Below, piece after piece: positions 1 to 47,793 of a DNA stretch of 64,000 bases. Each line of letters opens with the position of its first letter. Position 1 is the first letter of the stretch. The position numbers and the translations under genes were made by a program. This DNA comes from an uncultured Chloroflexia bacterium (lineage in GTDB: Bacteria > Chloroflexota > Limnocylindria > Limnocylindrales > CSP1-4), in contig CAVWSL010000015.1 in NCBI GenBank assembly GCA_963757765.1, forward strand, positions 1,392,553 through 1,456,552, read 5' to 3'. The notes under the pieces were generated by a model. That model was not told where the DNA came from, did no database searches, and saw only the letters and a list, made by a program, of their open reading frames with translations.

Positions 1-263
1 GCCACTGAGACGGCCGAAGGCCGAGCCGAATCATCAGACGTCTCTGCCGCTCTGACTAGGAAGAGGGCCGCCCGTCTCGCCCGGTAGCGTCGTCCCGGTC
101 ATTGCCGAGTCCCCGGGCTCGAGGGTGTTGGGCGGCGCCCCGGTCGGGCCATTCGGCACTTGTCCGGAGGGTGACGATCCTGTTCTGCTGTCGCTGTCGG
201 GGCACGAACAACGGCACTCGACACGGGTGTCGCCTTCGCTGCCCCGCGGAGGAGGTCCCCGTC

Positions 264-1358
264 ATGCGCAGAGTCCCAGCCCTGGTGGTCGCGTTCGCGA
301 CCGTGGCAGCCTTCCCGGCCGTCGCGGCGGTCCCGACGGCGGCCAGATCCTGCACCTACACGTTCCCCGACGGGGGTGGCACGTACCCCCTCAACGGTGG
401 CATCGTCGTGGACGGTGATGTTATCTGCGGTGGCCCCGGCAACGATATCGTCGACGAAATGGCCGGAGGCACATTCGACGGCGGTGATGGCGATGACCAG
501 GTCGGGAGTGTGCTAGGTGGCACCTTCAACGGCGGCGACGGGAATGACGGCACAGAGGCCATGGCCCGGGGCACCTTCAACGGCGGCGCCGGCAATGACG
601 CGGTCTATAACCGCATGGGCGGCTACGCCACCTTCAACGGCGGCGCCGGCGATGACCACGCGGGCGAACTCGACGGCGGCAGGTTCGACGGCGGTGACGG
701 CGCCGACAATATCCACGACATGCGCGGCGGCACGTTCGACGGCGGTTCCGGCAACGACTGGGTGGCCAACCTGGAGGGCGGCACGTTCCACGGCGGCACC
801 GGCGATGACCGCGTCTTCTATGTCACGGGCTACTTCCAGGCCGACACCACGTTCGACGGTGGGCCCGGCGATGACTACGTCAAGGCCGGCATGAATGGCG
901 GCACCTTCAACGGTGGCCCCGGCGATGACTACGTCAACGCAGTGGACGGCATGAGCGGCGGCACCTTCAACGGTGGCCCCGGCGATGACTACGTCAACGC
1001 AGTGGACGGCATGACCGGTGGCACGTTCAATGGCGGCAGCGGTCGGGACCATGTCGCGGGCCTGATCGACGGCACGTTCGCCGGTGGGTCCGGTCGCGAC
1101 TACGTGACCACGATGACCGACGGCACGTTCAACGGGGGCTCTGGTCGCGACTACGTCAGGACCATGAACGGCGGCACGTTCAACGGCAGGAGCGGGCCGG
1201 ACCACGTCCGGACCATGAACGGCGGCACGTTCGCCGGGGGCTCCGGTCGCGACCACGTCCGGACCATGAACGGCGGCACGTTCGCCGGGGGCTCCGGTCG
1301 CGACTCGGTCGGCACCTATGCCGGCGGCACCTGCTCGTCGGTGACCGGTTGCCACTGA
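264..1358 (+). CDS. Secreted RTX-like calcium-binding beta-roll repeat protein (paralog 1)
   Basis: ATG at 264 is preceded by GGAGGAGG. The N-terminus is a signal peptide (MRRVPALVVAFATVAAFPAVAAVP), followed by the conserved CTYTFPDGGGTYPLNGG motif. About 16 tandem ~18-aa units GGTFNGG(P/S)G(D/N/R)D.V are of the GGxGxD RTX nonapeptide type. The longer ORF starting at 102 is an upstream extension with no signal peptide. Confidence 0.7.
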   Translation: MRRVPALVVAFATVAAFPAVAAVPTAARSCTYTFPDGGGTYPLNGGIVVDGDVICGGPGNDIVDEMAGGTFDGGDGDDQVGSVLGGTFNGGDGNDGTEAMARGTFNGGAGNDAVYNRMGGYATFNGGAGDDHAGELDGGRFDGGDGADNIHDMRGGTFDGGSGNDWVANLEGGTFHGGTGDDRVFYVTGYFQADTTFDGGPGDDYVKAGMNGGTFNGGPGDDYVNAVDGMSGGTFNGGPGDDYVNAVDGMTGGTFNGGSGRDHVAGLIDGTFAGGSGRDYVTTMTDGTFNGGSGRDYVRTMNGGTFNGRSGPDHVRTMNGGTFAGGSGRDHVRTMNGGTFAGGSGRDSVGTYAGGTCSSVTGCH

Positions 1359-1523
1359 GACGGCCGAAGGCCGGGCCGAAGCATCAGACTCCTCTGTGGC
1401 ACCTGAGCCGGCGGTAGCCCGCCTCGCCCCTCCGCGCCATCCCGGCTCGGCCGGGTTCCGACGGCAGCGTGCTGAGCGCTATCATCCGCGCCCCGGCGCC
1501 GCGCACCCGAGGAGGTCAGGACG

Positions 1524-1760
1524 ATGGACGAACTCGAGCAGTTGTGGGCAGCCGAGGATGCCGCGGGAGCCGTGCTCCGCGAACACATCCTCACCGGCTT
1601 CGCAGTCTCGAGGGGAGACGACCTCACGGGCGCCATCGGCAAGGCATCGGTCGACCCGTCCTCGGCCGAGTACCAGGCCCGGCACGCCGAGCTCCAGGAG
1701 GCACTCGACGAGGCGCGACAGGCATCGCGCGCCAGGGAGCGCGACATCCTGCGGTACTGA
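1524..1760 (+). CDS. Hypothetical small acidic protein (78 aa) between RTX-like paralogs
   Basis: Strong RBS GGAGGTCAGGACG-ATG. The ORF is compact with high third-position GC. I recognise no family. Confidence 0.45.
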   Translation: MDELEQLWAAEDAAGAVLREHILTGFAVSRGDDLTGAIGKASVDPSSAEYQARHAELQEALDEARQASRARERDILRY

Positions 1761-1937
1761 CCCTCGTTCGCCGCCGGTCGTGCAGACGCGCTCTGGAGCT
1801 GGCCCGTGCGCCAAGCAGCGTGGCCCTGGAGGGCCGGTGACCAAGCCATCGGTGGCGGGTCCATACTTCGCCGTGGTCGGCACCGCGGAGCCCGCCCTAC
1901 CCGAGCGGCGCGGCACCGGCCGAGGAGGATCAGCGCC

Positions 1938-2765
1938 ATGCGGAGAGCGGCAACGTTCCTGGTAGCGGTCGCGACGATGGCGACACCCGCGGCCATCACG
2001 CCGACGTTGGCCGCCGCCGCACATTGCACCTACACCTTCCCCGACGGAGGGGGCGCATACCCCCTCAACGGCGGGGTCGTGGTGGCTGGCGACGTCCTCT
2101 GCGGCGGTCCCGGCGATGACCATGTCCCGGCGATGACCGGAGGCCGGTTCTACGGCCGTGGCGGCGATGACCGGGTCGGGGACCTGTGGGCCGGCAGGTT
2201 CGTCGGGGGTCAGGGAGACGACGGGGTCCAGGACTTCCACGGGGGGACCTTCGATGGTGGCCTCGGCGACGACTACTTCAACAATATGTTCGGTGGCACG
2301 TTCGATGGCGGGCCCGGGAACGATGGCGGGAAGGATGACACCGGCACCGATGGCGTCCAGTACGGGGGCGTGTTCCGCGGCGGCCCCGGCAACGACGGGC
2401 CGTTCCGGATGAACGGCGGCATCTTCTACGGGGGTGCGGGCGACGATGGCCCCTGGCAGATGAACGGCGGCACGTTCTTCGGCGGTCCTGGTGACGATGT
2501 CGCGGGCGAGCACCAGAACGGCGGCGCGTTCTATGGCGGCAGCGGCGAGGACTTCTCCCGGGAGATGTACGGAGGCACCTTCCACGGCGGCAGCGGCAAC
2601 GACCGCGTGGAGCTCCTGCGTGCTGGTGGCACGTTCTACGGCAACGCCGGCAACGACGACGTCAGCTTCCTCTCGGGCACCTTCTTCGGCGGACCGGGAA
2701 GGGATACGGTCGCGCACTACAACAGCGGAGGGCAGTGCCACTCCGTCATCGACTGCCCCCGCTGA
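1938..2765 (+). CDS. Secreted RTX-like calcium-binding beta-roll repeat protein (paralog 2)
   Basis: ATG at 1938 is preceded by CGAGGAGG. It has a signal peptide (MRRAATFLVAVATMATPAAITPTLAAAA) and the same N-terminal CTYTFPDGGGAYPLNGG module as paralog 1. The GG.G.D repeats are more degenerate: GGTFDGG.GDD, GG.FYGG.GDD, and so on. Confidence 0.7.
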   Translation: MRRAATFLVAVATMATPAAITPTLAAAAHCTYTFPDGGGAYPLNGGVVVAGDVLCGGPGDDHVPAMTGGRFYGRGGDDRVGDLWAGRFVGGQGDDGVQDFHGGTFDGGLGDDYFNNMFGGTFDGGPGNDGGKDDTGTDGVQYGGVFRGGPGNDGPFRMNGGIFYGGAGDDGPWQMNGGTFFGGPGDDVAGEHQNGGAFYGGSGEDFSREMYGGTFHGGSGNDRVELLRAGGTFYGNAGNDDVSFLSGTFFGGPGRDTVAHYNSGGQCHSVIDCPR

Positions 2766-3254
2766 CGAGCGAACATCGATACGCAGACCAGGAGTTCCCG
2801 GCTGTCCGGACGACGAATGCACACCGATCGGTAGCCGTCGTCGGAGCGGCCCCGGGGATCGGCATCCGGCCAGATCCCCAGCTCTTGAGGTGCCGGCCGA
2901 CAGCGTCCGCCGCACCGCGGGCTCCGGCCGACTATGCTGCGAGCCCCGCCCTACGATGCAGAAGGGTTCAGGCGTGGCAGAGCCCGATCGGGACGAGGTC
3001 CACCGACGCCTCGCCGCGCGCCGCCGGCGCGCGGCGAGGCGGCGCCGTCCTGCCGGGACTCATCGCCATCGCGGTGGGCGCGGTGCGCGGGCAGGGTGGG
3101 GACGTGCTGTCCATGGTCCTGGTGGGTGTCGGTGTCGGCGTGACCGCGGCCGGCATCATCGGCATGGCCGGCGAGTTCGCCCACAAGGGACCTGGCCCGA
3201 CCGATGCCCCGCCGACCCCGGTCGATGCCGGTCGCCCGATGTCCACCGCGCCCG

Positions 3255-4283
3255 TCACTTCGCGACAGTGAGACCCGCGATCGGGATACGACGCGCGGCA
3301 TAGGGCGGCTCGTAGATCACCTCGTCGATGACCGCGTCCTCGGATCGCGAAGCCGACGACCCCCGATGTCCGGTCATCAGGGCCCATCCGCCGGTTCGCG
3401 ACCTCCCTGGTCGGCGCATCCGGCGGGAGGGCGATCTCGGTGTATCCCCACTGGTTGCCGTCGGTGTCATGGAGCACGATGAACCAGGGCGCGGACTGGA
3501 ACGGCTTGGCGGGGTCGGCCTCGAAGACCACGTCGACGAGCACGTAGCGCAGGTCGGGATCGAGCGTCGCGCCGGTGGGTGGGCTGCCGGGGGCCAGGCT
3601 GGTTCCCGGCGCGTCGGGGGCCAGCGACGCCTGGGGCACGAATGGCGTGAACGGATCGGTGATGCCGCTGACCGTCAGGGTGCCCGCGGCGCTGCCATCG
3701 GGGCTGACGTCGGAGACGGGGGTCCCCAGCGCCGGCACCTCGTTGGGCAGCTGGTCGAGGATCGTGAGCAGACGGGCACCGGTCTCCGGCCGATACTGGA
3801 TCGTGGGGTCCTCGGCAGGCTGCGGGCTGTACAGGATCTCATCGATGACCGCATCCGTGGGCAGGGCGTATCCGATCACGCCTGTCACCCGGTCGCCGGG
3901 TGCGAGTCCCTGGTCGCTGACCGAGGGTGGCAGCGCATCGGCCGGCCGATTGATGTCCGTGGCTCCCAGATGAACCCGTCGCTGTCCTGGATGACGATCC
4001 GCGAGGGTTGTGCATCGAAGGGCTTGTCCGAGTGCGCCTCGAACCGCACCGTGAGTTCCACGTACCGCTGATCGGGACCTGGCGGGTCGTCGGGAGTGAA
4101 GCCGGTGAACGGATCCTCGATCTGGCGTACGGTGATGGTGCCGGCCTGAGTGCCATCGCTGGTGGAGTATTCGAGGACCGCATCCGGTCCGCCAGTGGCA
4201 CCCTGAGCGAGCATCTGGCTCGGGCTCCCGGCCGACAGCCCGAGCGCGAGCAGGAGCGGCACGGCGGCGGCAGCGCGGGACAT
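3255..4283 (-). pseudogene. Secreted triple-repeat beta-sandwich-like protein, possibly DUF4352-like, disrupted by two frameshifts
   Basis: The signal peptide is MSRAAAAVPLLLALGLSAGS at 4283. Three ~110-aa repeats are recognisable (…TITVRQIEDPFTGFTPDD…RIVIQDSDGFIWEP / …TLTVSGITDPFTPFVPQ…FIVLHDTDGNQWGY / …DAVIDEVIYEPP…). They are spread over three frames: ORFs 3885-4283, the middle of 2968-4353, and 3255-3470. The frame changes map to about 3965 and 3365, each just after the conserved aromatic of repeats 1 and 2. The site near 3365 sits at a C5 homopolymer. Confidence 0.5.
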
Positions 4284-4992
4284 GAGACCAGGACCTCCAG
4301 GGATGCGACGGAGACTTCAGGCACCTAACGGACGCCGGCGCCGAGGCTACCACGACCTTCCGCAGACCGATCCCGGTCGCGGCGATTGTCAGTGACGCGA
4401 GTCAACACGCGGACAGACACACCTGATCGGCAGCCGCGCGGGACTATGGCCGCCTGCAAGGCATGGCAATTTGGGGTAGTCCTGTGCCTAGTTATCGACC
4501 CCCCCGCACCCGTTGACGCCGAGCGCCAGAGACCGCACCCCCCAGGTACTCGCCTAGACGCCGACGGGATACCGTCCGGAATATGAAAGGTAGCCTTGAC
4601 CCGCTCAAACTGCTCCGGCGCCAGACGATCGAAGCGACACCGCAAACCGGACTTCGTTGCGATCCCGCTTCGGAAGGAGGTGACCGGCAGTGACCGCACT
4701 CGCGATCTGGTCCTCCTCGTGCTGTTCGCGCTGATGGCTATCGCGGCGTTCGCAATCGGGCGATGGTATGAGCAGACAAATCCGTCTTCGGCGGTCGCTC
4801 GGAGCGACCCGCAGCGAGTGGCACGCTCGGCGTCGACCCGCTCCGGAACGACGGCTAGGACGGCCTGGCTGCGACCCCGTGCGCGAGGGAATCGTGCGCG
4901 GTAGCAGGACCCTGAACCGCACTGGGTTCCATGGAGACTCTGGGCTGCCCTTGGTTCGCATCGCGGAACCTGGCAAGCCCGGTGAGACACGG

Positions 4993-5755
4993 CGTCAGGC
5001 GATGCTCTGTCCCTCGACCTCCTTGGGCTTGTTGATCCAGGCGGGGCCGGGCAAGGCTGGCGGCTCCGGCGGCTTGTTGACGAACCGCTCGGGGTGCGCA
5101 GCGTAGGCGGCGTCCAGGACCAGGGCACGTTCCGCCCGGACCGTGGCCGCGGTGCCGAAGGGGACCGACGCGGGTGTGTGCTAGCCGATCCCCGAATGGC
5201 GGTGATGGTGGTCGCAGGTGTCCAGGAACCCGCCTGCGAACTGCCGCGCATATTCGGTCGAACCGAAGCTGCCGGGGAAGTCCGGGCCGTACTTGATGGT
5301 CTTGAAGGCCGCCTCGGAGTAGGCGTTGTCATTGGACACGTGGGGCCGGGAGTGGGTCCGACCGATGCCCAGGTCCGCGAGCAGCTGGGATGCGGGCTTG
5401 GAGGTCATCGCGCTGCCCCGGTCGGCATGGATGACCAGACGCCCGGGCTCCGCCGGACGGTGGCTGGCCACCACCCGTTCGATCCAGTCACAGACCACCT
5501 CGGCACGCTCACCCTCCTTGACCATCCAGCCGGGGCTGTAGCGGCTGAAGATGTCGAGCATCACGAAAGCGTGTCGAGGACGGTCGCCCGCTCATCGGGC
5601 GAGAGCGCACGGGCCGGAGTCCGGCGGGGGGCGGGCGGACCGAGGCGCGGGCCGAGAAGGCCCCGGTAGTGGGTCGCGCGAGCGACATCGAACGCGGCGC
5701 ACGCGGCGCTGGTGCCCACCACGGGCGCCAGCTCGCTGACCGCAGAGGCGATCAA
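4993..5755 (-). pseudogene. IS3-family transposase OrfB (DDE/rve) remnant
   Basis: Contains the SNDN.YSEA.FKT.KY and HHHRHSGIG-x-HTPA motifs typical of IS3-family OrfB. It is interrupted by an in-frame TAG at 5181 and a frame break near 5561-5564. Confidence 0.55.
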
Positions 5756-6108
5756 CGCCCGTCCTTCGGATCGGCGCTCCCGAGGGAGAGCTCCCGCAAG
5801 AGCGCCGAGACGTTTCCCTGGACGGCGATCACCTTCTCGGCCCGCTCCAGCCGCGTGCGGAGCCGCTCCACCTGTCCGCGCAGGCGCTCGTTCTCGGCCT
5901 CCAGCGGATCGGCGGCCGGGCCCCGGGACGCCGAGGGCCTGAGCCTAGGCCGCCGGAGCCGGCGACACAGTGGCTGCTGTAGAGGCCGTCGCGGCGGAGC
6001 AGCGCACCCGGGCGCCGGGCGTCGTGCAGCGCTCGAGCTCATCGAGGATGGCCGCCTTTTAGGCCGCCGTGAACACTCCGCGCTTGGGTCGCTCGACTAC
6101 CTCGGGGT
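5752..6108 (-). pseudogene. IS3-family transposase OrfA remnant
   Basis: C-terminal coiled coil/leucine zipper (ENERLRGQVERLRTRLERAEK) typical of IS3 OrfA. The upstream HTH part is in another frame and contains an in-frame TAA (…GVFTAA*KAAILDE…). Confidence 0.5.
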
Positions 6109-6877
6109 CCGGGTCCTGGTCCATCGGCCAAGGATGCGTCGGCCGAAACTGGTGCTGGTGAGATGGCCATGGGAAGTCTCCTTCCCGCCCTCGGTCAGTG
6201 ATCAGTGGAGGTCGGGTGTCTCACCGGAGCCTGGCAGCGAGGGGAACGGCTCCGGGAGCCATCCGCAGAGCGACCGGGGCAACGTCTGGGCCCACCGGCT
6301 TTACGACGACATCTGGTCAGGCGCGGATCGTTAGGGCCCAATGACCCGCAGCTCCTCGGCCGCGACCGGGACTGACCAGCCGAGCCGGAGAGCATGAATC
6401 GCGAGCAACAAAGTCGACTGTACTCGTTGATGTGCATCGAAGGACTGGCCGCGAGAGTGGCCCGCGCATTCGGGCTTCGACAACCCGAACGTCGCGGGGG
6501 AGACTCTTGTTTGTCAACGACGTGCCGGGTGACTACAGCCAGGACCCGCCGCCTTCACCATCAGGGCTATCCTTGACGGCTCCGGGTTTGCGCCCGAAAT
6601 TTGCCACCGGACCGACTGCCCCGGCGTCACCCGCCAAGGCTAGCAGTGGCTTGGCGAGGATCTCGTCGCTGCTGCGCGTTGGACGGGAACCCACCGAGCC
6701 CTGAACCACTGCCCCGTCGAGGCATGGACCGAGATCGCTGGGACGAAACGCCGTGGAAAGATGCCCAGTCCGATAGCCTCGCAGCGCGACAGCGCCGTGG
6801 CACTTCGTCGTCCGTCTGTGCAAGGCATTGGGGGCTGCTCGGCATTCCCGTCAAGCCAGACCGGCCCGAACAAACGA

Positions 6878-9527
6878 CTATTGCTTGGAGATGCGGACGT
6901 TGCCGCTAAACGTGATAGAACCCGAACCAGGGAAGTCCGCGGTAGTCGCCGTGTCCGATACGTTGTTCCGGACGATCACAGTGGCCGTGTTGCGAATGGT
7001 CATGCGGAGCCAGTCGCCAGTCACGTTCTCGACGCTGATGGATGGCTTGGTATTGGTCGAATAGCCTGCTGCTGCTACAGCGTAGCAGGTGCAGTAGGCA
7101 CTGGCCGCCGACAAGTCGCCCGTGTGTCGAATGTCGACGCCATCAACGACACCGCGGATGCTGGCCGCACCTGTCGCGTCGTTCACCTCGAAGTCGATGG
7201 CATGTAGGCCTGTGTACGCCACGTGGCCACCACGAATTGTGACCTGACCCGCCACTGGCGCAATACCATTGCGGGACGCGCGCTCGATGTCTGGATTGCT
7301 GATGACGACTCCTGTGGCTGGCTGGTTGTTGCCCGTCGAGTAACCCACATAGATGCCGTCGCCGCGGGTATCACGTGTTACCGGGCGGTTTAGGGTGATG
7401 TCCGATCCGCCGTCAACCTTGATGCCTGATTCCCCCTGGTTACCGCTGTCCCAAGCGTAGCCCGTGCCATAGACGGTCGGATCGTTCAGTACCACGTTGG
7501 TCGATGTCACCACACGCAGGATCCCACTTGCTCCCTTAAGGCTGCCCTGAAGCCGTGATCCTCGGAAGTCGACCGTGAGACCAGTTGCGGTGAAGGACAG
7601 CTGGGTGACCTTGTAGATGCCGTTCTTGGCCAGCGCCACGCGCTCGCCGTTGTGGGACTGGAGGAACGTGCGGAGGGCCGATGTAACGTCTGAGGCGCCA
7701 GTGGCGTCCCCAGCGAAGACCGCCGCATAGGTCGTAGCCGGGGTCGGCGTGGGCGCTGGGGTCGGCGTCGGCTTGGGCGTGGGCGTCGGCGTGGGCGCTG
7801 GGGTCGGCGTCGGCTTGGGCGTGGGCGTCGGCGTGGGCGCTGGGGTCGGCGTCGGCTTGGGCGTGGGCGTCGGCGTGGGCGCTGGGGTCGGCGTCGGCTT
7901 GGGCGTGGGCGTCGGCGTGGGCGTGGGCGTCGGCGTCGGCGTCGGCGTCGGCGTGGGCGTGGGCGTCGGCGTCGGCGTCGGCGTGGGCGTGGGCGTCGGC
8001 GTCGGCGTCGGCGTCGGCGTGGGCGTGGGCTCGGGGTCGGCGTCGGCGTCGGCGTGGGCGTCGGCGTCGGCGTCGGCGTCGGCGTGGGCTTCGGTGTCGG
8101 TGTCGGTGTCGGGGTCGGCGTCGGGGTCGGCGTCGGCGTCGGGGTCGGCGTCGGGCGTCGGCGTCGGCGTGGGCTTCGGCGTCGGGGTCGGCGTCGGGTC
8201 GGGGGCGGCCTTGGGTCGCCGGGGTCGGGGTCGGCGTCGGGTCGGCGGCCTTGGGTGCCGGCGTCGGGGTCGGCGTCGGGTCGGGCGGCCTTGGGTGCCG
8301 GCGTCGGGGTCGGCGTCGGGTCGGCGGCCTTGGGTCCGGCGTCGGCGTCGGCGTCGGGTCGGCGGCCTTGGGCGTCGGGGTCGGCTCGGGGGCTGGCGCA
8401 GCTTCCGATGGTGCATCGGTTACGTGGAACGTCCGCGTGAGCAGCGTGTTCCCATCGGCGTCGCGAGCCCCAATGGAGTGGTCCCCGACCGACGCGTCGT
8501 CGGGGACCTGCATCGTGACCGTGTCGCTGCCGCTTGCGCTCGCGGAGTAGCTCGGCATGCCGTCGATCGATCCATCGAACTCGATGTCGCCCGACGTTCG
8601 ACTGCCGAGACCGGAGAGGGAGAGCTTGACCGTCGTCGACGCCGGTCCGACATCGGTGGATAGCTTCATCCGGGGTGTGACTCGTGGCGTGGCCTTCGGC
8701 AGGGGCGTCTTGGTCACGACACGAGGTTTGGGCGTGGCGATGACGCGAGAGCGTGGCGCGACCGACAGGCTGTCGACCGCCAGGTTGTCGAGGGTGACGC
8801 CGACGGGAGCCGTTGTGGCATCAGTCGCGAGGGTGGTGCGCACGCCCACCTTGCCGGCCGCTGTCAGGGCGTTGCCGGGATCGGGGCGCTTGAGCTGCCA
8901 TCCGGCCGGTTCCGCGCGACCCGCCGTCCAGACTCGCGCCCGGAACATGACCGGGCTGCTGCCGCTGACCCGCGCACGGACCGCGATCCCGCTGCCCGGG
9001 CTGACCCGTACGCCGTGGACTCGGATCTCGTTCCCGATCACTCGGACCGAGCCCGACCGGACGCGGATCACGCTCAGCCAGACCGATCCGTCGTCGGCGA
9101 TCCGCGTCCGGATCTGGTACTGGTTGCCATTCCCACGGCTTCGGAAGACGGCCGAGACGGTCACGCCACCGCGATCGGCGACCTTTGGGATGCCGACACG
9201 GAACTTGACCACGGCGTCGCGGACGGAAAGGCTCGACAGCATCATGTCCGCCTGGGCGCCGGGACGCTTGAGGGTGATGCGGCCCTTGCCGCCAGCGACA
9301 CGGAACGCAACCCCACGTCCGGTGGTCTGATAGCGCCCACCCTGGTCAGCTTTCCCCCAAGCCGCGCTCACGGCGCGGGAGAACGAGTCGCGCGCGACCG
9401 TGGTCCGTCTCGAGGGCGCGGCGAACCCCTCGAAGGGTACGGCAAGCGCCACGGCGGCGATCACCACGAGCACCATCAGGCGCATCGTCCGGACATAGAT
9501 GTAGTCAGACAAGTGCAAGCGACTCAC
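6878..9527 (-). CDS. Secreted multidomain protein: N-terminal beta-sandwich/Ig-like domains, PT-rich linker, C-terminal right-handed beta-helix (pectate-lyase fold); frame drifts inside the linker
   Basis: ORF 7536-9527 starts with a signal peptide ([24 protein letters not shown]) and carries the globular domains. ORF 6878-8416 carries (PT)n/[13 protein letters not shown] and then a beta-helix-like C-terminus (…NGIYKV…[15 protein letters not shown]…[11 protein letters not shown]…VISNPDIE…). The two ORFs are in different frames and meet within the 7740-8420 GTCGGC/GTGGGC hexanucleotide array. At least two frame changes occur between 8030 and 8420. Confidence 0.55.
7740..8420. repeat. Pro-Thr-encoding hexanucleotide microsatellite, (GTCGGC/GTGGGC)n on +, about 110 units
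   Basis: Direct reading shows near-perfect tandem GTCGGCGTCGGCGTGGGC. All three minus-strand frames read low-complexity PT/AD/RR, and the antisense reads GVGVG. Confidence 0.85.
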
Positions 9528-10136
9528 GGCTCGCTCCCTTCGTGGCCAGGGGGGCGCTGGGGCGCCTCCTCCGGTGGGGTCCGTCCTGTGCTGAGGTCAT
9601 AGGAACGCGACGACTGTCGTCAGAACCTGACAGGCCGGGCCCGGCCAGACATAGAGGGCTTATGGTCCGGTGGGGCCGGTACGCATCGGCTGCGGTGCGG
9701 TGACGTCGCCCAGGGCGAATCGGAGCCCGTGGTTGCCGGATCCGGGTGGGGACCTCTGGTCGTGGTCGCCGCTTCGGCGACCGGCGGGACACCCGCCAGG
9801 ACCGACCGTTGGTGGGTGTGGCACGCACGCACCACCTCCCCACCAGGAGTACGTCCCCCGTGACGCATAAGTACTAGTCAAGAACCGCGTAAGGGATTAC
9901 CGTTGATACCTCAGCGCATGGATGCCCAGCACAGCCGTCGGTCCCAGAAACCGTCGGCATCGCTCGCTCGAAACTGGCGGGATGTCCACGGCAGGTCATT
10001 TGGTGACCCCAGTCGCGCTGGATAGAGGGCACGGTATTGACACTCCGCGACTCCATACGAACCACCATCGGGCGAGGCGCCGGGCCGGTGCCGACCGCGA
10101 CACCTGCGCGGCCGATTCACGCGCCCGGACTTCGAT

Positions 10137-12089
10137 ATGCCGGTGCGCTCACTCATCGGTCGAACGCTCGGCCGGCTCCGCGGGCGGCACCTGTTCCTGC
10201 TGGATTCCCTGGGCATCAGCGTGGGCGCTTATCTCGCCTTCGCGTTCCGGAACGTCACGGATGCGCCGGACTGGATGGTCGGGTTGGTGCTCATGGTCGT
10301 CGCCATCCACGCCCTGGTCGACATGCGCCTGGGCCTGTACACCCACGATTGGCGGTTCGCAAGCGTTCCCGATCTGGCCCGGATCGTCGTGGCTATCGCG
10401 CTCGGGACACTCATCGCGTGCGCTTCGGTGACCCTCGCGGCGGCCCTCGATCCTGGGCTGGCGCGGGTACCGCTCTCGTCCTGGCCTGTGGAACTGCTCG
10501 TCGCCCTGGCCGTCGTCGGCGGGCTGCGATTCGGCATCCGCGCCGCATTCGATTTTGCGATCGACCGACCTGGCAACGGCCATGCGGCACTGCCGACACT
10601 GCTATATGGGGCTGGCCGAGTCGGGGTGATGATGGCTCGGTCGGCACAGCGGACCCCCGCGGCCGGCGTGAGGCCAGTGGGCTTCCTCGATGATGACCCC
10701 CGGCTGGCCGGCACGACCGTGGCGGGCTTGCGGGTCTACGGTGGGCGTGACAACCTCGACGAGGCCGTCCGCGCAACCGGGGCCGAAGCCCTCCTGATCA
10801 CCGCGTCCAATGCCTCGGGCGCCGTGGTACGGCAGATCATGGAGGCCGCAGGCGCGCATAAGTTGGCCGTCAGGACCGTGCCCTCGATGGTCGAGTTGCT
10901 CGATGGCAGCGTGGACGCGTACCGAGTCCGACCCGTCCGGGTCGAGGACCTGTTGCGGCGCCCGACCGCGACCGAGCACGTGCCCGAAGTCGCGATCGCC
11001 TTCGCGGGCCGAACGGTGCTCATCACCGGCGCTGGCGGGTCGATCGGCTCGGAGCTGGCTCGACAGGTGCTCGCGGTCGGTCCCAAGCGTCTCATCCTGC
11101 TGGATCGGGCTGAAAGCGCCCTCTTCGACATCCATCGTCAGTTGCTGGAGACCCACGTCGAGACACCGGTCGAGATCGTGTCCCGCCTAGGCAATGTCGC
11201 CAGCCGGAACGCCATCGCGCGCATGATCGCGGCCGACAAGCCCGACGTGATCCTCCACGCGGCCGCCTACAAGCATGTGCCCATGATGGAGGAACACCCG
11301 TCCGATGCCGTGCACGTCAACATCGGCGGCACCGCGTCGTTGCTCGATGCCGCAGCGGCCGCAGGTGTCGAACGCTTCGTGCTCGTGTCGACCGACAAGG
11401 CGGTCAATCCGTCGAGCGTCATGGGCGCCAGCAAGCGCATCGCCGAGATGCTGGTGGCCGACACCGCACGGCGCAGTGGCCGCGCCTATGTGTCCGTCCG
11501 GTTCGGGAACGTCCTTGGCTCGAATGGCAGCGTGGTGCCCATCTTCAAGGACCAACTGGAACGCGGCCTGCCATTGACGATCACGCACCCCGAGATGACC
11601 CGCTACTTCATGACCATCCCGGAGGCATCCTGGCTCATCCTGGATGCAGCCGCGCTCGGTCAACCGGGCGACCTGTTCGTCCTGGACATGGGCCAGCCGG
11701 TCAAGGTGCTGGATCTCGCCAAGGATGTGGTCCGGCTCGCGGGGCGTGACCCCGAGACCCAGCCCATCGAGTTCATCGGTCTCCGGCCCGGAGAGAAGCT
11801 CCATGAAGAGCTGTTCTACGACACCGAGCGAGTCGTACCGACCAGCACACCCAAGGTCATGCGCGCGATCTCCGACGAGCCTCCCACGGACGTCCGTGCG
11901 AGCGTCGGGCGCCTCATGGAGTTCGCGACAGGGGACCACGACGAGGAGCTCAAGGCGGAGCTCCGGAGATGCGTGTTCAGCAAGCCGTCGGCCGACGTGG
12001 ACGCAGTGCCCCTGACAAGCTCCTGGGTGATCCCGGTTCACGGCAGTGGTGCCGAAGATAGGGTGGCAGTGGGCCGAACGAGCCTCTAG
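10137..12089 (+). CDS. Polysaccharide biosynthesis protein CapD/WbpM/PglF-like (membrane-anchored UDP-sugar 4,6-dehydratase, SDR family)
   Basis: N-terminal region has about 4 TM helices. Rossmann motif VLITGAGGSIGSEL. The conserved …ILHAAAYKHVPMME… and …FVLVSTDKAVNPSSVMGASKR…RFGNVLGSNGSV.P.F… are typical of CapD/WbpM. Confidence 0.85.
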   Translation: MPVRSLIGRTLGRLRGRHLFLLDSLGISVGAYLAFAFRNVTDAPDWMVGLVLMVVAIHALVDMRLGLYTHDWRFASVPDLARIVVAIALGTLIACASVTLAAALDPGLARVPLSSWPVELLVALAVVGGLRFGIRAAFDFAIDRPGNGHAALPTLLYGAGRVGVMMARSAQRTPAAGVRPVGFLDDDPRLAGTTVAGLRVYGGRDNLDEAVRATGAEALLITASNASGAVVRQIMEAAGAHKLAVRTVPSMVELLDGSVDAYRVRPVRVEDLLRRPTATEHVPEVAIAFAGRTVLITGAGGSIGSELARQVLAVGPKRLILLDRAESALFDIHRQLLETHVETPVEIVSRLGNVASRNAIARMIAADKPDVILHAAAYKHVPMMEEHPSDAVHVNIGGTASLLDAAAAAGVERFVLVSTDKAVNPSSVMGASKRIAEMLVADTARRSGRAYVSVRFGNVLGSNGSVVPIFKDQLERGLPLTITHPEMTRYFMTIPEASWLILDAAALGQPGDLFVLDMGQPVKVLDLAKDVVRLAGRDPETQPIEFIGLRPGEKLHEELFYDTERVVPTSTPKVMRAISDEPPTDVRASVGRLMEFATGDHDEELKAELRRCVFSKPSADVDAVPLTSSWVIPVHGSGAEDRVAVGRTSL

Positions 12090-12122: not shown

Positions 12123-13493
12123 CTAGACGACCGCGGCGGTTCCGACGGGGACGGCCACCAGGGACGGCTCGACCGCAGCTCGCGCTTCCGGCGGGTACTC
12201 GACGCCGAGCGTGACCACGGTCAGGCCGGCACCGTTCGCGGCGGTCCGATCGACGATCCGTCGTGCATCCGCGACGACGGTGCCGCGCATCCCGGCGGCG
12301 ATGGAGGCCCAGTCGAGGCCCGCGAACTCCGGCCACTCCGTACCCACTACGACCGCATCCGCCCCGAGCGCGGCCGCGGCCGCGGAACCGACACCCTGGA
12401 TGCTCACGCCATCTCGCGCCAGCTGCGCCACCCCGGCATCGGTCGCCACAGGGTCGAACGCGACCACCGTCGCGCCACGCGCCACGAGCACCTCCGCAAG
12501 ACGCAGCGCCGGTGACTCCCGGAGATCATCCGTGCCCGCCTTGAAGGTCAGACCCAGCAATCCGACCCGAGCCCCATCGAGCGTTCGGCCGGCGACGTGC
12601 TCGAGGCGATCGACGATCCAGAGCGCCTGCTGGTGATTCGAGGCGGCGACCGAAGCGATGAGCGGCGTCACCACGCCGTGATGGAGGGCAAGATCGGGCA
12701 GCGCCCGCACCTGCGACGGGAAGCACGATCCGCCGAAGCCCGGCCCGGGGGTCAGGAAGGACCGCCCGATGCGCGCGTCGAGGCCCATGCCGTCGACGAC
12801 GGCGTGGACATCGGCACCCGTCGCCGCGCACAACCGCGCGAGCTCATTGGCGAAGCTGATCTTCGCCGCCAGGAACACGTTCGACGCGAGCTTGATGGTC
12901 TCGGCACTCGTGAGGTCCGTATCCACGATCGGCTTGGCCATCGGTGCGTACAGCTCATGGAGCTCCGCCACGAGCCGGTCGGCATCGGGCTCGGCGCCCA
13001 CGACCACCCGGTCGGGCTCCAGGAAGTCACGCACGGCGTTGGCTTCGCGCGTGAACTCGGGGTTGAAGCACACCCGCATCCGTGGGTCGATCTCACGCAC
13101 CATGGTGGCCAGGCGTGTCGCGGTGCCCGGCATGAGGGTGCTCCGGATGACGAGGTGACGGGGTGCGCCAGGGTCACGGGCGACCCCGATCACGGCCTGC
13201 TCGACCAGCGCCGCCGTCCATTCACCCGCGCGGTCCAGGGTGCCGACCGCGACGATGACGAGCGCGGTGCCGTGCGTTGCTGCGGGCTCCGCGTGGAACG
13301 ACAGGCGATCCGACGCCAGACCCTCGCTCACCAACGTGTCGAGCCCCGGCTCGTGGATCGGGACATCCCCGGCTCGCAATCGCTCGACACGAGCGGCATC
13401 GATGTCGACGACCCGGACCTCATTGCCAAGATGAGCGAGGCAGGCTGCTGTGACGAGGCCGACATAGCCGGCGCCGATGACGCTGATGAGCAT
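12123..13493 (-). CDS. Nucleotide-sugar dehydrogenase (UDP-glucose/UDP-N-acetyl-mannosamine 6-dehydrogenase family)
   Basis: N-terminal GxGxxG motif MLISVIGAGYVGLVTAACLA. The central region has a catalytic Cys (…GFGGSCFPSQV…). The C-terminal region is a UDP-binding domain. Start set at the internal Met (13493) rather than the ORF Met (13544). Confidence 0.85.
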   Translation of the reverse strand: MLISVIGAGYVGLVTAACLAHLGNEVRVVDIDAARVERLRAGDVPIHEPGLDTLVSEGLASDRLSFHAEPAATHGTALVIVAVGTLDRAGEWTAALVEQAVIGVARDPGAPRHLVIRSTLMPGTATRLATMVREIDPRMRVCFNPEFTREANAVRDFLEPDRVVVGAEPDADRLVAELHELYAPMAKPIVDTDLTSAETIKLASNVFLAAKISFANELARLCAATGADVHAVVDGMGLDARIGRSFLTPGPGFGGSCFPSQVRALPDLALHHGVVTPLIASVAASNHQQALWIVDRLEHVAGRTLDGARVGLLGLTFKAGTDDLRESPALRLAEVLVARGATVVAFDPVATDAGVAQLARDGVSIQGVGSAAAAALGADAVVVGTEWPEFAGLDWASIAAGMRGTVVADARRIVDRTAANGAGLTVVTLGVEYPPEARAAVEPSLVAVPVGTAAVV

Positions 13494-13543
13494 CTGGGAA
13501 GGGTACCGCAGGTCGCTGTTCGGCCGAACGGGCGGCTGGCCCA

Positions 13544-13909
13544 TCAGGCGGTGCGCCAGGCCTTCCAGGTCGTCTCGTCGATGCCGACCGTGAAGTCGTC
13601 GCCGAAGCGTGCCAGGGGCAGCCGCAGCAACCGCGGATCAGCGAGCAACCGGTCGAACACCTCCGTGTCGTCCATCCGCAGGTATGCCAGACCGGCGTCG
13701 CGATAGGCCTGGGACTCCGTATCGAGGAGCGCACGCGCACCCAGCTTGTGTGCGAATCGGCGGAGCTCCGTGGGCGCCGGCGGCCGCACCAGGAGGTCCA
13801 CGAGACTCACCGCGACACGTCGCTCCTTGAAGAATCGGATGGCCCGCTGCGTCGGCCGGGAATCCTTCCGGCCGAAGAGCTGGACGGTGGCCCCGGGCGC
13901 AGCGGCCAT
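13544..13909 (-). CDS. ArsC/Spx-family protein (glutaredoxin-like arsenate reductase family, YffB-like)
   Basis: …VQLFGRKDSRPTQRAIRFFKERRV… is the typical ArsC-family N-terminus with a thioredoxin-like fold. The protein is 121 aa. Confidence 0.7.
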   Translation of the reverse strand: MAAAPGATVQLFGRKDSRPTQRAIRFFKERRVAVSLVDLLVRPPAPTELRRFAHKLGARALLDTESQAYRDAGLAYLRMDDTEVFDRLLADPRLLRLPLARFGDDFTVGIDETTWKAWRTA

Positions 13910-28036: not shown

Positions 28037-28846
28037 ATGTCCAGCACGCCGCCGCGCTACGTCCATGGTCATCACGAGAGCGTGCTCCGGTCGCATCGCT
28101 GGCGAACGGCGGAGAACTCCGCCGCGTACCTGCTGCCGCACCTGCAGCGCGGTGCCCGACTGCTCGATGTCGGCTGCGGGCCAGGCACGATCACGCTCGA
28201 CTTCGCGCGTCTCGTCGCGCCGGGGACGGTCGTCGGCCTGGACGCGGTCGAGGCGCCCCTTGCAGCGGCACGCGCAGATGCTGGCGCGGCCGGGCTGGAG
28301 AACGTCGAGTTCCGGATCGGGGACGCGATGGCGCTCCCCTACGGCGATGGCATGTTCGATGTCGTGCACGCGCACCAGGTCCTGCAGCACGTGCCCGATC
28401 CTGTGGGCCTGCTGCGCGAGATGCGTCGGGTGTGCCGGCCCGGTGGCCTCATCGCGGCCCGGGATGCCGACTACGCTGCGATGACCTGGTACCCGGTCGA
28501 CCCGGTACTGACCGACTGGCTCGATGTCTATCGCCGGACCGCGCGAGCGAGTGGGGGCGAGCCAGATGCCGCACGACGACTGCTGGCCTGGGCACATGCC
28601 GCCGGGCTGGACGACGTGGTCGCGACTGCGAGTGCGTGGTGCTTCGCGACTCGCGACGACCGGGCATGGTGGGGCGGCTCATGGTCCGACCGCGCCACCA
28701 AGTCGACCTTCGCCGACCAGGCCCTGGCCCACGGCATCGCGAGCCTGGCGGACCTGGAGCGCATCGCGGCGGCGTGGCGTCGTTGGGCGACCGAGCCGGA
28801 CGCCTGGCTCGCGATCCTGCACGGGGAGATCCTCGCCCGGGTCTGA
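28037..28846 (+). CDS. Class I SAM-dependent methyltransferase
   Basis: Motif I LLDVGCGPG and the post-I acidic residue; 269 aa. Confidence 0.8.
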   Translation: MSSTPPRYVHGHHESVLRSHRWRTAENSAAYLLPHLQRGARLLDVGCGPGTITLDFARLVAPGTVVGLDAVEAPLAAARADAGAAGLENVEFRIGDAMALPYGDGMFDVVHAHQVLQHVPDPVGLLREMRRVCRPGGLIAARDADYAAMTWYPVDPVLTDWLDVYRRTARASGGEPDAARRLLAWAHAAGLDDVVATASAWCFATRDDRAWWGGSWSDRATKSTFADQALAHGIASLADLERIAAAWRRWATEPDAWLAILHGEILARV

Positions 28847-28849
28847 CCC

Positions 28850-29340
28850 TGCCTGACCGGCGTCCGACCCGGGTCCCAGCCGAGGCTGACCGGCGTCCGA
28901 CCCGGGTCCCAGCCGAGGCTGATCGCGTCTGAGCCGCGGCTGACCGGCGTCCGATCGCGTCTGAGCCGCGTCTGATCGCGTCTGAGTCCGTCTCGCCCGA
29001 TGTGTGCCCCGCCCAGGGGGTGGGTCGCGCGCCGACTTCCTCCGGGACCCGCCGGGCGGGCGAGTAGGCCGGCGAAGGCCCTGGCTCAGCCCCGTGGGGT
29101 CATCACCGACAGCTTTGCCGGCGGAATCACCCGGGAGGCGGGTGTCCCGGACAACGAGACCGCTCGCGGAGCACCAGATCCGGCTCTCGCCGTCGCACTC
29201 ACCCGGTGGGCGGGGCGGCGACGGCCAGCTTCGCGGGCGACGGCCAGCTTCGCGGGCGACGGCCAGCTTCGCGGGTGACGGCCAGCTTCGCAGGCGGCAC
29301 GCCCGCCACGATCAGGCGACGCGCCCGCCACGATCCGACC
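28850..29340. repeat. Intergenic cluster of short tandem direct repeats
   Basis: A 33-bp unit CTGACCGGCGTCCGACCCGGGTCCCAGCCGAGG occurs twice at 28853-28918, followed by about 18-bp GATCGCGTCTGAGCCGCG-like units through about 28995. A 19-bp unit GACGGCCAGCTTCGCGGGC occurs four times at 29219-29294. A 14-bp CGCCCGCCACGATC occurs twice at 29301-29338. Confidence 0.75.
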
Positions 29341-30432
29341 CTACAGGCCGGCGAGCAAGGCCCCGGCCTGACGTGCGCAGACCAGATCCTCGCGGGCCTC
29401 GATGCGCAGCACCTGGGGTCCGGTCCAGCCGCGCGACAGCACGCCATCGGCGCCGGTAGCGTCCGCCGCGATCGACGCGATCCCTAGCACCCCGAGCCGT
29501 GCCACGATCGAGGACCGGACGCGCGCTGCGTGTTCGCCGATGCCCGCGGTGAACACCAGGCCATCGAGGCGCGACAGGGCGGCGGCAGCCGCGGCGATGC
29601 CAGCCGAGGTCCGGGCCACGAACATCTCGATGGCCAGCCGTGCCGCGGCATCTCCGTGGTCGGCCGCGGCTTCGATCTCGCGCATGTCAGCGCTGACCCC
29701 AGACACGCCCAGCAGACCCGAGCCGTGCTCGAGCGCGTCCGCGAGCCCCTCGACCTCGAGCCGGCCATCACGCAGGAGCCCGAGCACCACACCCGGGTCG
29801 ATGGAGCCCGAGCGGGTGGCCATCATCAACCCTTCGAGCGGGGTGTAGCCCATCGATGTGCGCACCGACCGACCGCCCTCGACCGCGGTCACGGAACAAC
29901 CGCCACCGAGATGCGCCACCACGAGCGACAGCTCCCCGACGGGCCGCCCCAGAAGCTCCGCGGCGCGCCCGACCGACCAATCGACCGAGAGGCCGTGGAA
30001 GCCATACCGCCGGATCCCCCAGTCGGTCCGCCACGAGTCGGGCACCGGATAGCGCCTCTCGGCCTCCGGCAGCGTGGCGTGGAAGGCCGTGTCGAAGCAG
30101 CAGACCTGGGGGATACCAGGGAACCGTTCCTGGGCCGCCCGCAGGATCCGCAGCGCGGGCGGCATGTGCAGCGGCGCGAGGGGCACCACCCCCTCGAGCT
30201 CGCGGACGACTCCCGCATCCGCGACGACCGGCGTCACGAAGCGCGGCCCGCCATGAACGAACCGGTGCGCCACGACAGCTGGCGATCCACCGCCGGGCAG
30301 TCGAGCGAGGAGAGCGACCAGCTCTCCGGCCGGATCGGAGATCGCCGACGACGCCCGGCCGAGGGTCCGGTCACCCTCGATGAGGCTGGCCTTGACGGTC
30401 TGGGAACCCGCGTTGAGGAACAGGACGCGCAT
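29341..30432 (-). CDS. ackA: Acetate kinase
   Basis: Acetate/propionate-kinase motifs …VAHRFVHGG…, …CFDTAFH…, …RRYGFHGLS…. Confidence 0.9.
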   Translation of the reverse strand: MRVLFLNAGSQTVKASLIEGDRTLGRASSAISDPAGELVALLARLPGGGSPAVVAHRFVHGGPRFVTPVVADAGVVRELEGVVPLAPLHMPPALRILRAAQERFPGIPQVCCFDTAFHATLPEAERRYPVPDSWRTDWGIRRYGFHGLSVDWSVGRAAELLGRPVGELSLVVAHLGGGCSVTAVEGGRSVRTSMGYTPLEGLMMATRSGSIDPGVVLGLLRDGRLEVEGLADALEHGSGLLGVSGVSADMREIEAAADHGDAAARLAIEMFVARTSAGIAAAAAALSRLDGLVFTAGIGEHAARVRSSIVARLGVLGIASIAADATGADGVLSRGWTGPQVLRIEAREDLVCARQAGALLAGL

Positions 30433-33561: not shown

Positions 33562-35292
33562 CTACCGGAGCAGCACCCCGAAGGTGAGCTTCGGCGCTCC
33601 CTCCTTGCCGGACAGCGTGAGCTTGGTACCGTCCGTGGACGACTTCCAGGTCGTCACCTGGGCCATCGCGGACAGGAAGTTGGCCTCGACCGCGGTCGCC
33701 AGGTCGCCGCACAGCTTCTGGGTCATGGACAGCGTGCCGATCGCGATGGTGCTGCCGTCCAGCTTGTAGCTGGCGGTGTACGTATTGCAGCCTGCGAATC
33801 CGCTGATGTTGCCCGATGCGAATGCCGCGGTCGGGGTCTCGGGCACCACCGGCACATCGATGACGTCGCCGCTGCCATCGTCATAGCGAACGAGGATCCA
33901 GCTGGTCGCGTTCAACGCGTCGCTGGGTGACGCGGTCGGCTTCGGTGTCGGCTTCGGTGTCGGCTTCGCGGTCGGCTTCGGTGTCGGCTTCGCGGTCGGC
34001 TTCGCGGTCGGCTTGGGTGTCGGCTTCGGCGTCGGCTTGGGGGTTGGGCTTGGCGTCGGCTCGGGACCCCGCGAGACCTTGTAGTCCACGGCAGTCCCCC
34101 GCTGCACGATGACTCCAGCCTTGGGGTCGGTGCTCAGGACATCCCCGGCCGGGACCTTGGCATCGTACTTGCGGGTCTTCGCACCGGCGGTCAGGCCTGC
34201 TGCGCCGATCTGGACCAGGGCGTCAGCCTCTGCGTCACCAACGACGTTCGGCACGGCGACCGTGGCGGGCGTCGGCTTCGCGGTGGGCTTGGCAGTCGGC
34301 GGCGGTGTCGGTGTCGGTGTCGGTGTCGGCGGCGGTGTCGGTGTCGGTGTGGGCGGCGCGCTGGGGCTCGGCAGGGGCACCGCGTTGGGGTCCGGCACGA
34401 GCGACATGATGGCGACACCGGTCGCGTCGTAGAGCGTGAGGCCGGACGCATCGAGCGTCCATGTCGTGGCGCCTTCCAGACCGGCCAGGAACTCGGCCTC
34501 CTGGCTCGCGATCTCTGGTGTGGGACATGCGGCACGTGTCGTGCCGAGTGGCCCGATGGCGATGGCGTTCCCCGCGACCGCGTACTGCCCGAACAGGTCG
34601 TTGCAGCCGGTGGTACCTGTCAGCACATCGTCCGCCCGGAACAGCAGGGTCAAGGCGCTGCTGCCGAGCGGCGTCAGGAGTGTGCCGGTGCCATCGGTGA
34701 TGCCAGTGACCAACCAGCCGCCGATGATGGGCACCCGCACCGTGGCGGTGTAGACCAGGACCGGACGACCTGCGGCATCCACGAGCGACAGTGTCGAGCC
34801 CACCAGGGTGAAGCTGGTGACCGAGGCGATGGCTGCGAGATAGGCCGTCTCGAACGCAGCCAGCCCGGCGGTACAGCTCGCCGGTGGATAGGTGACGCCC
34901 ACCTGGCCGAAGGTGATGACATCGCCTGCAGTCGCGTATTGCGCGAAGTAATCGTCGCAGCCGTCGTTACCGACCGCGAGACCGTCGTGGAGCACCAGGG
35001 TGACCACGGGCGCGTCGATCAGCACAGCGGCCAGCCCGACGGACGTCGGGACATCGAGGAGCCAGCGCGTCCCCGTTAGGGTCGGCGCGGCCGGCAGCGC
35101 CGAGGGACCCGGTGCGGCGGAGGAGCTGGGCACCGCCGACGGAGCCGGTGACTGGGCGACGGTCGTCCCAGCCAGGAGCATCGACATCGAGGCCGCGAGC
35201 AGCGCGGCAAGCCTGGGACGGCGTCCCGGACGGTAGCGGCGGAGCACGTCGGCTCCCTGATCGGCCGGGATGGCCGCGGATACGAGCGACAT
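33562..35292 (-). CDS. Secreted META(HslJ-like)x3 / PASTA domain protein with PT- and PKPT-rich linkers
   Basis: Signal peptide (…[25 protein letters not shown]). Three META/DUF306-like modules carry GC(D/N)..F(A/G)QYA..G..I.(F/I)G.(V/L)…C…FL.A pattern (…[19 protein letters not shown]…, …[19 protein letters not shown]…, …[19 protein letters not shown]…). One PASTA-like module sits between PT/PKP linkers (…[63 protein letters not shown]). An alternative start is GTG 35247. Confidence 0.7.
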
Positions 35293-35449
35293 GGCTGACT
35301 CCCGGAACGTGACGACATTCGGATGTCGCGGCGCGAGCACCGCAGCAGAGACTATCGCGCGATCTGGCCGAGACCGTGTCCGGGTGTTGGCCGAAGTGTG
35401 CCTGGCACGCGCGGAGCGCCCCGTTCGGGCGTCATCATCCGGGTGTCGA

Positions 35450-47194: not shown

Positions 47195-47544
47195 GTGCGC
47201 CGGCGTGGCCGCTCGGGGGCCGGCGTGGCCGCTCGGGGGCCGGCGATCGACCGACTCCACCGTCAGGTGACCCGGCCCCCGGGCCGAATAGCCGCCTGGC
47301 GGGTGACGTGGCTGCCGGCGACCTCGCGATGTGGCGCCAACGAAGGCTCGCCGGTCCACTCACCCGCTACTCGGGTCGGCGGGGCCCTGGGCGATCCGGT
47401 CCGCCGCTCCGACGCCAGCTTGCGCGCTCAGGACCCCAGGATGCGCAGCTGGTCGACGCCATCCCACCAGGCAGATGGCCGCCGGTCACATGCTTGACAG
47501 ATGCAGCTGCACTTGCGGGCTGGTCATGATCCTGACATCGTTGC

Positions 47545-47793
47545 TTGATATTGACAGTTCGCTTCGCTCCTGACGGCCGGGTCTTGGTGCCCGTGGAGTT
47601 GCGCAAGGCCCTGGGCGTGACGCCCGGTGAGCTGCTCGTTGCACGGGTCGTCGACCGGCAGCTGGTCATCGAGCGTCGGGACGACGCACTCCGGCGGCTC
47701 CAGGGTCGATTCTCCAACGTGCCGGCGGGCGTCAGCCTGGCGGATGAGCTCATCGAGGATCGCCACAGGGAGGCCGCCGACGAGGCGTCATGA
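47545..47793 (+). CDS. vapB: AbrB/MazE/SpoVT-type antitoxin (VapB)
   Basis: TTG start. …RVLVPVELRKALGVTPGELLVARVVD… is a swapped-hairpin antitoxin fold. ATGA overlap with the downstream PIN gene. Confidence 0.7.
   Translation: MILTVRFAPDGRVLVPVELRKALGVTPGELLVARVVDRQLVIERRDDALRRLQGRFSNVPAGVSLADELIEDRHREAADEAS

Follow-up and report, generated by a model that had tools for sequence, protein, structure and literature searches.

Pro-Thr (PT) boxes are interdomain linkers of secreted bacterial glycan-active enzymes such as CenA and Cex of Cellulomonas fimi. Simple-sequence contingency loci, known from phase-variable genes of Neisseria, Haemophilus and Campylobacter, are built of units of 1, 2, 4, 5 or 7 nt. 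Here we describe a gene that resembles both in part, located on the minus strand of a 64,000-nucleotide stretch of contig CAVWSL010000015.1 from an uncultured soil Chloroflexia bacterium (the window, to whose positions all coordinates refer unless another locus is named). It codes for a predicted secreted protein with a C-terminal beta-helix domain (C-domain), and in the deposited sequence its reading frame changes several times within a long hexamer array. Like PT boxes (PF04886, 'PT disordered repeat'), the linker encoded by this array is a low-complexity (PT)n spacer of the kind that joins accessory or binding modules to catalytic ones, specified by a GC-rich tandem DNA repeat. Unlike classical PT boxes, it is about ten times longer (~220 aa, 651 bp), is an almost pure hexamer microsatellite, and as deposited does not lie in a single frame. 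Like contingency loci, the gene codes for a surface or secreted protein and has within its coding part a simple repeat in which the frame is disrupted, but its units are 6, 39 and 42 nt long, and the frame is changed by solitary one-base indels that lie between units. A third comparison is with the Microflora Danica metagenome-assembled genomes (MAGs), which are Nanopore-only and were assembled with Flye and one round of Medaka (PMC12313526). One-base indels are found in the same gene family in those assemblies, in linkers as well as in globular domains; unlike these relatives, the window has no such errors outside the linker. We favor, with some reservation, the explanation that the frame changes are consensus errors in a real gene.

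Phase changes in the Pro-Thr linker

Two long open reading frames (ORFs) in different frames cover the locus, one of 663 aa (9527-7536) and one of 512 aa (8416-6878). The tail of the former is an out-of-frame read-through of the C-domain; the latter starts as Arg/Pro-rich, out-of-frame linker and has no hydrophobic signal of its own. Analysis with Tandem Repeats Finder (TRF) yielded a single array at 7739-8389, 651 bp long, with a period of 6, 109.5 copies, 76% matches and 5% indels. An earlier note on this DNA had counted about 110 units, as TRF does, and had put the length of the array at 680 bp, which is too long. The degenerate PT pattern CCNACNCCNACNCCNACNCC matched 87 times, against 0.12 matches expected by chance. 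As the array is stop-free in all three sense frames, ORF length alone is uninformative on the true frame. Plus-strand ORFs over the array (7749-8663 and others, reading 'GVGVGL...') were rejected as antisense by-products of the stop-free repeat.

The PT phase was read in two ways, from the starts of hexamer matches modulo 3 and with a frameshift-aware dynamic-programming path. It changes five times, at ~8336 (-1), 8289 (+1), 8216 (+1), 8155 (+1) and 8031 (-1), for a net shift of +1. PT is encoded in the frame of the N-terminal half (N-frame) at 8414-8337, in the third frame at 8334-8290 and again in the N-frame at 8288-8217, then in the frame of the C-domain (C-frame) at 8215-8156, in the third frame at 8154-8033, and in the C-frame from 8030 to 7739 and on to the stop at 6878. 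The earlier note had reported at least two changes of frame, which holds, and had divided the array into three frame segments; this division was roughly right, but it missed the excursion at 8334-8290 and extended the N-frame PT to 8180, where it ends at ~8216. Changes 1 and 2, and likewise changes 4 and 5, form compensating pairs, so that change 3 (~8216) is the sole uncompensated event.

Splitting the array at each CCCAAG gave its unit structure. The 5′ block consists of four units of 38, 39, 40 and 40 bp, with a canonical length of 39 bp, and the 3′ block of three 42-bp units identical to one another, after which a variant fourth copy of 48 bp leads into the C-domain. All five events are one-base indels relative to sibling repeat units. 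When they are taken out, a seamless PT/PK/PA linker of ~220 aa joins both halves, and the gene with these five single-base repairs encodes ~880 aa, comprising a signal peptide, an N-terminal module (N-module), an immunoglobulin (Ig)-like domain, the PT linker and the beta-helix.

In segment 8154-8033, positions 1, 2 and 4 of the hexamer are invariant, and positions 3 and 6, the third codon positions of the PT phase, account for almost all of the variation; the exception is a single A at position 5, which gives an AAG Lys codon. The occurrence of variation at PT-phase third codon positions within each segment indicates that every segment evolved as PT-coding sequence. The five events span 310 bp, and the ~2 kb of domain-coding flanks contain neither a stop nor an indel. 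No slippery heptamer, long A/T run or homopolymeric tract was present at the five break points, and a search for methylation motifs associated with them found no consistent motif.

Homologues, selection and assembly quality

Homologues in which the same modules occupy a single ORF support the view that the two halves joined by the linker are one gene, as the earlier note had it. P0017 has the N-module of the window and the C-domain in one ORF, and L006 (4870-6843), L011 (2966-5239) and L005 (4627-6855) each encode in a single frame a transmembrane or signal segment, an N-module, the same Ig-like domain, a linker and the C-domain. The orthologue P0120 has its called start at the position equivalent to GTG 9527. 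Its signal-like N-terminus is identical to that of the window (100% conserved); by eye, this segment comprises a basic n-region, a 16-residue hydrophobic stretch and a 'GFA/AP' site.

Comparison of 6881-9485 with the orthologous locus L001 (10043-12492) yielded dN/dS values that show purifying selection on both halves: 0.17 in the N-module, 0.18 in the Ig region and 0.08 in the C-domain. The low dN/dS, together with flanks devoid of stops and indels, makes the gene unlike an old pseudogene. Nucleotide identity to L001 is 84% in the part coding for the N-module and Ig domain and 71% in that coding for the beta-helix. The corresponding dS values are ~0.5 and ~2.0, and this inequality indicates that the two halves of the gene have different histories. 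The repetitive linker may be a recombination joint for module shuffling among paralogues.

In a scan of GTDB representatives, the closest relatives were Microflora Danica MAGs, the best match being 75% identical, and the window's proteins have the same provenance (NCBI+ENA) as these MAGs. We infer that the window's contig comes from the same kind of long-read, probably Nanopore-only, assembly. Over 2.57 kb, two contigs of one sample that carry the same gene differ by 15 one-base indels, in addition to 22 substitutions. L001 and L002 (sample ERZ25039539) have in common a +2 frameshift in the N-module that consists of two single-G insertions, each abutting a GATC site, and in the linkers of L005 and L001 a G is missing at CCAGG sites; these indels suggest systematic Nanopore errors linked to methylation motifs in the related MAGs. 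In both L014 and P0073, the beta-helix domain itself is frameshifted. Linkers of at least 400 bp (L005, L001, L002 and the window) all contain three to five frame events, and those of at most 225 bp (L006 and L011) have no internal ones. The linkers of L001 and L002 differ by one copy of a 33-bp unit, a frame-neutral difference; the units of the orthologue are 33 and 39 bp long.

The remainder of the window was examined for similar defects. Its Pfam-verified genes, ~19.8 kb in all, have full-length domains in single ORFs and no frameshift; they include genes for a phosphoketolase (823 aa), a GH36 protein (740 aa), a Pat-like ligase/GNAT protein (938 aa), a 1345-aa cyclase/AAA/TPR protein, an ABC exporter, a GT4 protein, CapD, a UDP-glucose dehydrogenase and a protein with three META domains and a PASTA domain. 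A plot of GC by codon position proved too noisy and was replaced by ORF-level GC at third codon positions (GC3) and a codon model trained on these genes, and the codon-model scan of the window detected no other same-strand frame switch. The META-PASTA gene (33562-35340, minus strand) codes for a secreted protein with two PT/PK linkers and served as an internal control for linker integrity. Its linkers of 56 bp and 130 bp stay in frame; the arrays lie at 33931-34065 and 34295-34358. This gene, whose linkers are ordinary, matches PF04886; the repaired linker of the beta-helix gene gave no PF04886 score and matched no Pfam family.

Causes of the frame changes

We consider it rather probable that the gene is real and probably intact, and that the changes are consensus errors specific to the repeat; the frame drift most likely has no biological basis. 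Under this explanation, the gene would code for a secreted modular protein that runs from a signal peptide through a beta-rich module, an Ig-like domain and a ~220-aa PT linker to the beta-helix. The five changes would be single-base consensus errors of long-read metagenome assembly, confined to the 650-bp low-complexity GC-rich array, in which reads would have no unique anchoring and polishing would be unreliable. The organism itself would translate the whole linker in PT phase and make an uninterrupted protein. Slippage of hexamers gives changes of +/-6 rather than +/-1, and slippage of the higher-order 39- or 42-bp units is in frame, which speaks for consensus error, as does the restriction of five 1-bp indels to the linker, not expected of neutral decay. 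The earlier note had raised assembly collapse as a possible cause. An artifact is indeed the most likely one, but collapse was rejected as its mechanism because the events are base-level consensus indels, single bases and not missing units.

Several observations weigh against consensus error. The window is otherwise very clean, so that the error process must be highly repeat-specific, with ~16 events per kb in the array against <0.05. Within the array, there is no frame error in the three flawless 42-bp units or in the long (CCGACG)n stretch at 7740-8030, and no homopolymer or methylation motif is evidently common to the five events. The independent contigs L001 and L002 have two linker indels in common, which are thus either real in that species or systematic. 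The gene sits in a codon-atypical stretch beside an IS3 relic, a setting in which real decay is plausible, and for the contig of the window, source and platform are inferred. Decay is the main alternative: the frameshifts may be real, and the gene either a recent pseudogene or the source of only a truncated 663-aa product (the N-module, the Ig domain and a scrambled PT/Arg-rich/Asp-Ala tail, without the beta-helix) in a decaying polysaccharide island visited by insertion sequences. With a net shift of +1, the C-domain is untranslatable from the only plausible start; the IS3-family relic with its truncated rve lies downstream; codon usage in region 1-9500 is weakly host-like, and GC is 0.659 at 6001-8000; the tandem paralogues found downstream of the L001 orthologue are missing from the window, the rest of which has no signs of sloppy assembly; and some linker indels recur in L001 and L002. 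We nevertheless regard real decay as unlikely, if worth serious attention. Neutral decay does not predict that five independent 1-bp indels fall within 310 bp while the 2 kb of flanks have none, dN/dS is low in both halves, slippage of hexamers or higher-order units would have caused in-frame changes, and PT-phase third-position variation was kept in all segments. Furthermore, every long linker of the Nanopore-only relatives shows the same pattern, beside evident errors.

The remaining alternatives appear weaker. The linker might tolerate changes of frame, the compensated pairs 8336/8289 and 8155/8031 being real and harmless and 8216 an error or a very recent mutation, with PT stretches replaced by Arg-rich or Asp-Ala stretches. 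The array is open in all three frames, the events amount to two compensating pairs and a single one, and L005 and L001 regain their original frame after several excursions. However, random +/-1 events return to frame about one time in three, and the observed pairing has about a 1-in-4 chance of arising, so that it carries no statistical signal; the relatives are demonstrably error-prone, and no homologue derived from short reads has such excursions. We hold this explanation to be improbable. Slightly less credence still goes to the broader idea that stop-free PT linkers are frameshift-tolerant buffers, with real compensated +/-1 indels, whose repeat DNA might in addition be a recombination joint for N-modules; the latter part draws on the dS of 0.5 in the N-terminal part against 2.0 in the C-domain relative to the same orthologous locus. 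A contingency locus, in which changes in repeat length truncate the protein or fuse its catalytic domain, had been proposed in the earlier note, and programmed recoding by ribosomal frameshifting or transcriptional slippage could likewise switch the beta-helix on and off. The presence of a long simple repeat inside a gene for a surface or secreted protein, and the fact that L001 and L002 differ by one 33-bp unit, would fit such a switch. Yet all units (6, 33, 39 and 42 bp) are multiples of three and their gain or loss is therefore frame-neutral, the five sites have none of the slippery heptamers or long A/T runs looked for, and five recoding events in one mRNA are implausible; we consider a switch of either kind very improbable. 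Least credible of all is that the two long ORFs in different frames are two genes, independently equipped with a start and a signal. The 512-aa ORF lacks a hydrophobic signal and has its beginning within the out-of-frame linker. Over the PT array, the C-frame is devoid of ATG, GTG and TTG. The 663-aa ORF terminates in out-of-frame read-through of the C-domain, and homologues fuse the same modules in one ORF.

Protein modules, neighborhood and implications

The features of the locus are listed in Table 1. A scan for promoters and terminators around the gene found nothing.

Table 1. Features of the interrupted beta-helix gene, with the sequence context of each phase change, and N-module insertions in the related contigs L001 and L002
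Feature	Position	Strand	Basis or remarks
Whole interrupted gene	6878-9527	-	GTG start at 9527, stop at 6880-6878; ORFs, three-frame translation, repair path, single-ORF homologues
Shine-Dalgarno-like AAGGGAG	9534-9540	-	6 nt upstream of GTG 9527; read from sequence
Signal-peptide-like N-terminus	9417-9527	-	Putative cleavage site (GFA/AP); sequence, AlphaFold2 (AF2) helix over hydrophobic stretch
N-terminal beta-rich module, ~210 aa	8763-9413	-	Without Pfam or NCBIfam model; all-beta AF2 model
Ig-like beta domain, ending TRTFHVTD	8415-8657	-	Directly before linker; tblastn to paralogues, predicted beta strands; fold putative
Pro-Thr linker	7739-8414	-	TRF hexamer array (CCGACG)n at 7739-8389
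Phase change 1 (-1)	8334-8337	-	GCCGG-ACCCAAGG vs sibling units GCCGGCACCCAAGG, i.e., GCCGG-A vs GCCGGCA
Phase change 2 (+1)	8283-8290	-	AAGGCCGCCCGAC vs sibling units AAGGCCGCCGAC, i.e., GCCGCCCGAC vs GCCGCCGAC
Phase change 3 (+1)	8215-8218	-	CCGGCGACCCAAGG vs siblings CCGGCACCCAAGG, i.e., CCGGCGACCC vs CCGGCACCC
Phase change 4 (+1)	8153-8157	-	ACGCCCGACGCC vs canonical ACGCCGACGCC, i.e., ACGCCCGAC vs ACGCCGAC
Phase change 5 (-1)	8030-8034	-	CCCCGAGCCCACG vs CCGAAGCCCACG (twice elsewhere in array), i.e., CCGAGCCC vs CCGAAGCCC
C-terminal right-handed parallel beta-helix domain, 286 aa	6881-7738	-	Conserved motifs including GLHxIDFExND
Two single-G insertions adjoining GATC	L001 10480-10510; L002 1560-1590

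The 286-aa C-domain has 119 homologues, mostly in Chloroflexota MAGs and often as several paralogues per contig, in which variable N-terminal modules (fn3/PF16656, CAP, SLH, collagen-like, Ig-like and CBM-like) are combined with P/T/A-rich linkers. The gene is an ordinary member of this family of secreted beta-helix proteins, which centers on Chloroflexota and whose N-terminal modules are interchangeable. In related genomes (L001 11644-15638; L005, L007, L008, L010 and L011), two or three beta-helix paralogues with differing N-terminal modules form tandem clusters; the window has one copy. The same beta-helix domain (57% identity) also ends an 885-aa PT-linker protein of L013 (635-3289), from a low-GC MAG labelled Patescibacteria. 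Either the family extends past Chloroflexota or the L013 contig is misbinned.

The C-domain consists of the stacked parallel beta coils of a right-handed parallel beta-helix (pectin lyase fold). Its score for the Pfam family PF13229 (Beta_helix) is below gathering (15.2 against 25.9 bits, E=0.017), and a few of its homologues do carry PF13229. The earlier note had proposed a search against pectate-lyase and GH28/PL profiles; no CAZy-type Pfam match was found for lyase or hydrolase families (PL1, PL3, PL6, PL9, PL31, GH28 and others), and a profile of the C-domain had no match at E<=0.1 among all PDB sequences. Identity is only 11-18% to the PL31 alginate lyase 6kfn, the AlgE4 A-module 2pyg, Vibrio RbmB 9ozd and the phage tailspikes 7chu and 3gq7. 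A surface polysaccharide or exopolysaccharide is the probable target of the C-domain, which would cut or modify it, and the protein is probably a secreted or surface enzyme.

For the N-terminal part, whose comparison with domain profiles had also been suggested, no family was found in Pfam or NCBIfam and nothing meaningful in a PDB sequence search. Its AF2 model, computed from a 4-sequence alignment, is all-beta with a pLDDT of 45, too poor for a fold search. The N-module matches 3289 representative proteins at E<=1e-3, 221 of them at E<=1e-30; the matches usually lie within proteins of 500-2700 aa and have GH26, Beta_helix/NosD and PKD as partners. It looks like an undescribed, widespread accessory domain of secreted glycan-active proteins that possibly binds carbohydrate. 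The Ig-like domain has 39-47% identity to the domain at the same position in paralogues L005, L006, L007, L009 and L011 (tblastn). The architecture first proposed, with a signal peptide, a beta-rich N-terminal region and a C-terminal beta-helix, is hence supported by the signal-like segment, the low-confidence all-beta model and the pectin lyase fold, respectively.

Neighboring genes encode a CapD-like Polysacc_synt_2 protein (10137-12089) and the UDP-glucose dehydrogenase (12123-13544), an arrangement that is syntenic with the orthologous locus L001. Window positions 1-9500 have a poor codon-model score, with GC down to 0.659 at 6001-8000, and no Pfam match was found for the long ORFs 102-1358, 1482-2915, 2968-4353 and 4325-5332. 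This region may be a variable or acquired surface-polysaccharide island. On the minus strand at 5181-6096, 0.8-1.7 kb downstream of the beta-helix gene, lies a relic of an IS3-family transposase composed of an OrfA-like leucine-zipper fragment (5752-6042), a short helix-turn-helix (HTH)-like fragment (5561-5755) and rve (5181-5591). The rve core is N-terminally truncated (Pfam rve positions 23-100 only), and ~70 aa are missing between fragments. Tandem repeats 51, 60, 102 and 153 bp long lie on the plus strand at 848-1330, inside ORF 60-1358; the Gly/Asp-rich NGGTFxGGSGRDHV units that they encode are reminiscent of calcium-binding repeats and had no Pfam match. Farther away, a cluster of short tandem repeats (units of 11, 19, 21, 22, 32 and 33 bp) at 28836-29335 falls in an apparently non-coding gap (28846-29341), and a MazE/AbrB-type antitoxin gene is followed by one for a PIN-domain toxin, a VapBC-like pair (47536-48227, plus strand).

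If the frameshifts were real, the locus would be only a recent pseudogene; if the compensated ones were genuine, it would be an example of frame-tolerant disordered linkers, of wider interest. Should repeat-specific consensus error be the cause, as we favor, the locus serves as a quality flag: long GC-rich PT/PA linkers in MAGs assembled from long reads only appear to be hotspots of single-base consensus errors. Among the family members in databases, many begin within the linker or are missing their N-modules. Errors in the linker would break modular secreted enzymes of this kind into two ORFs, so that annotation would miss their architecture.

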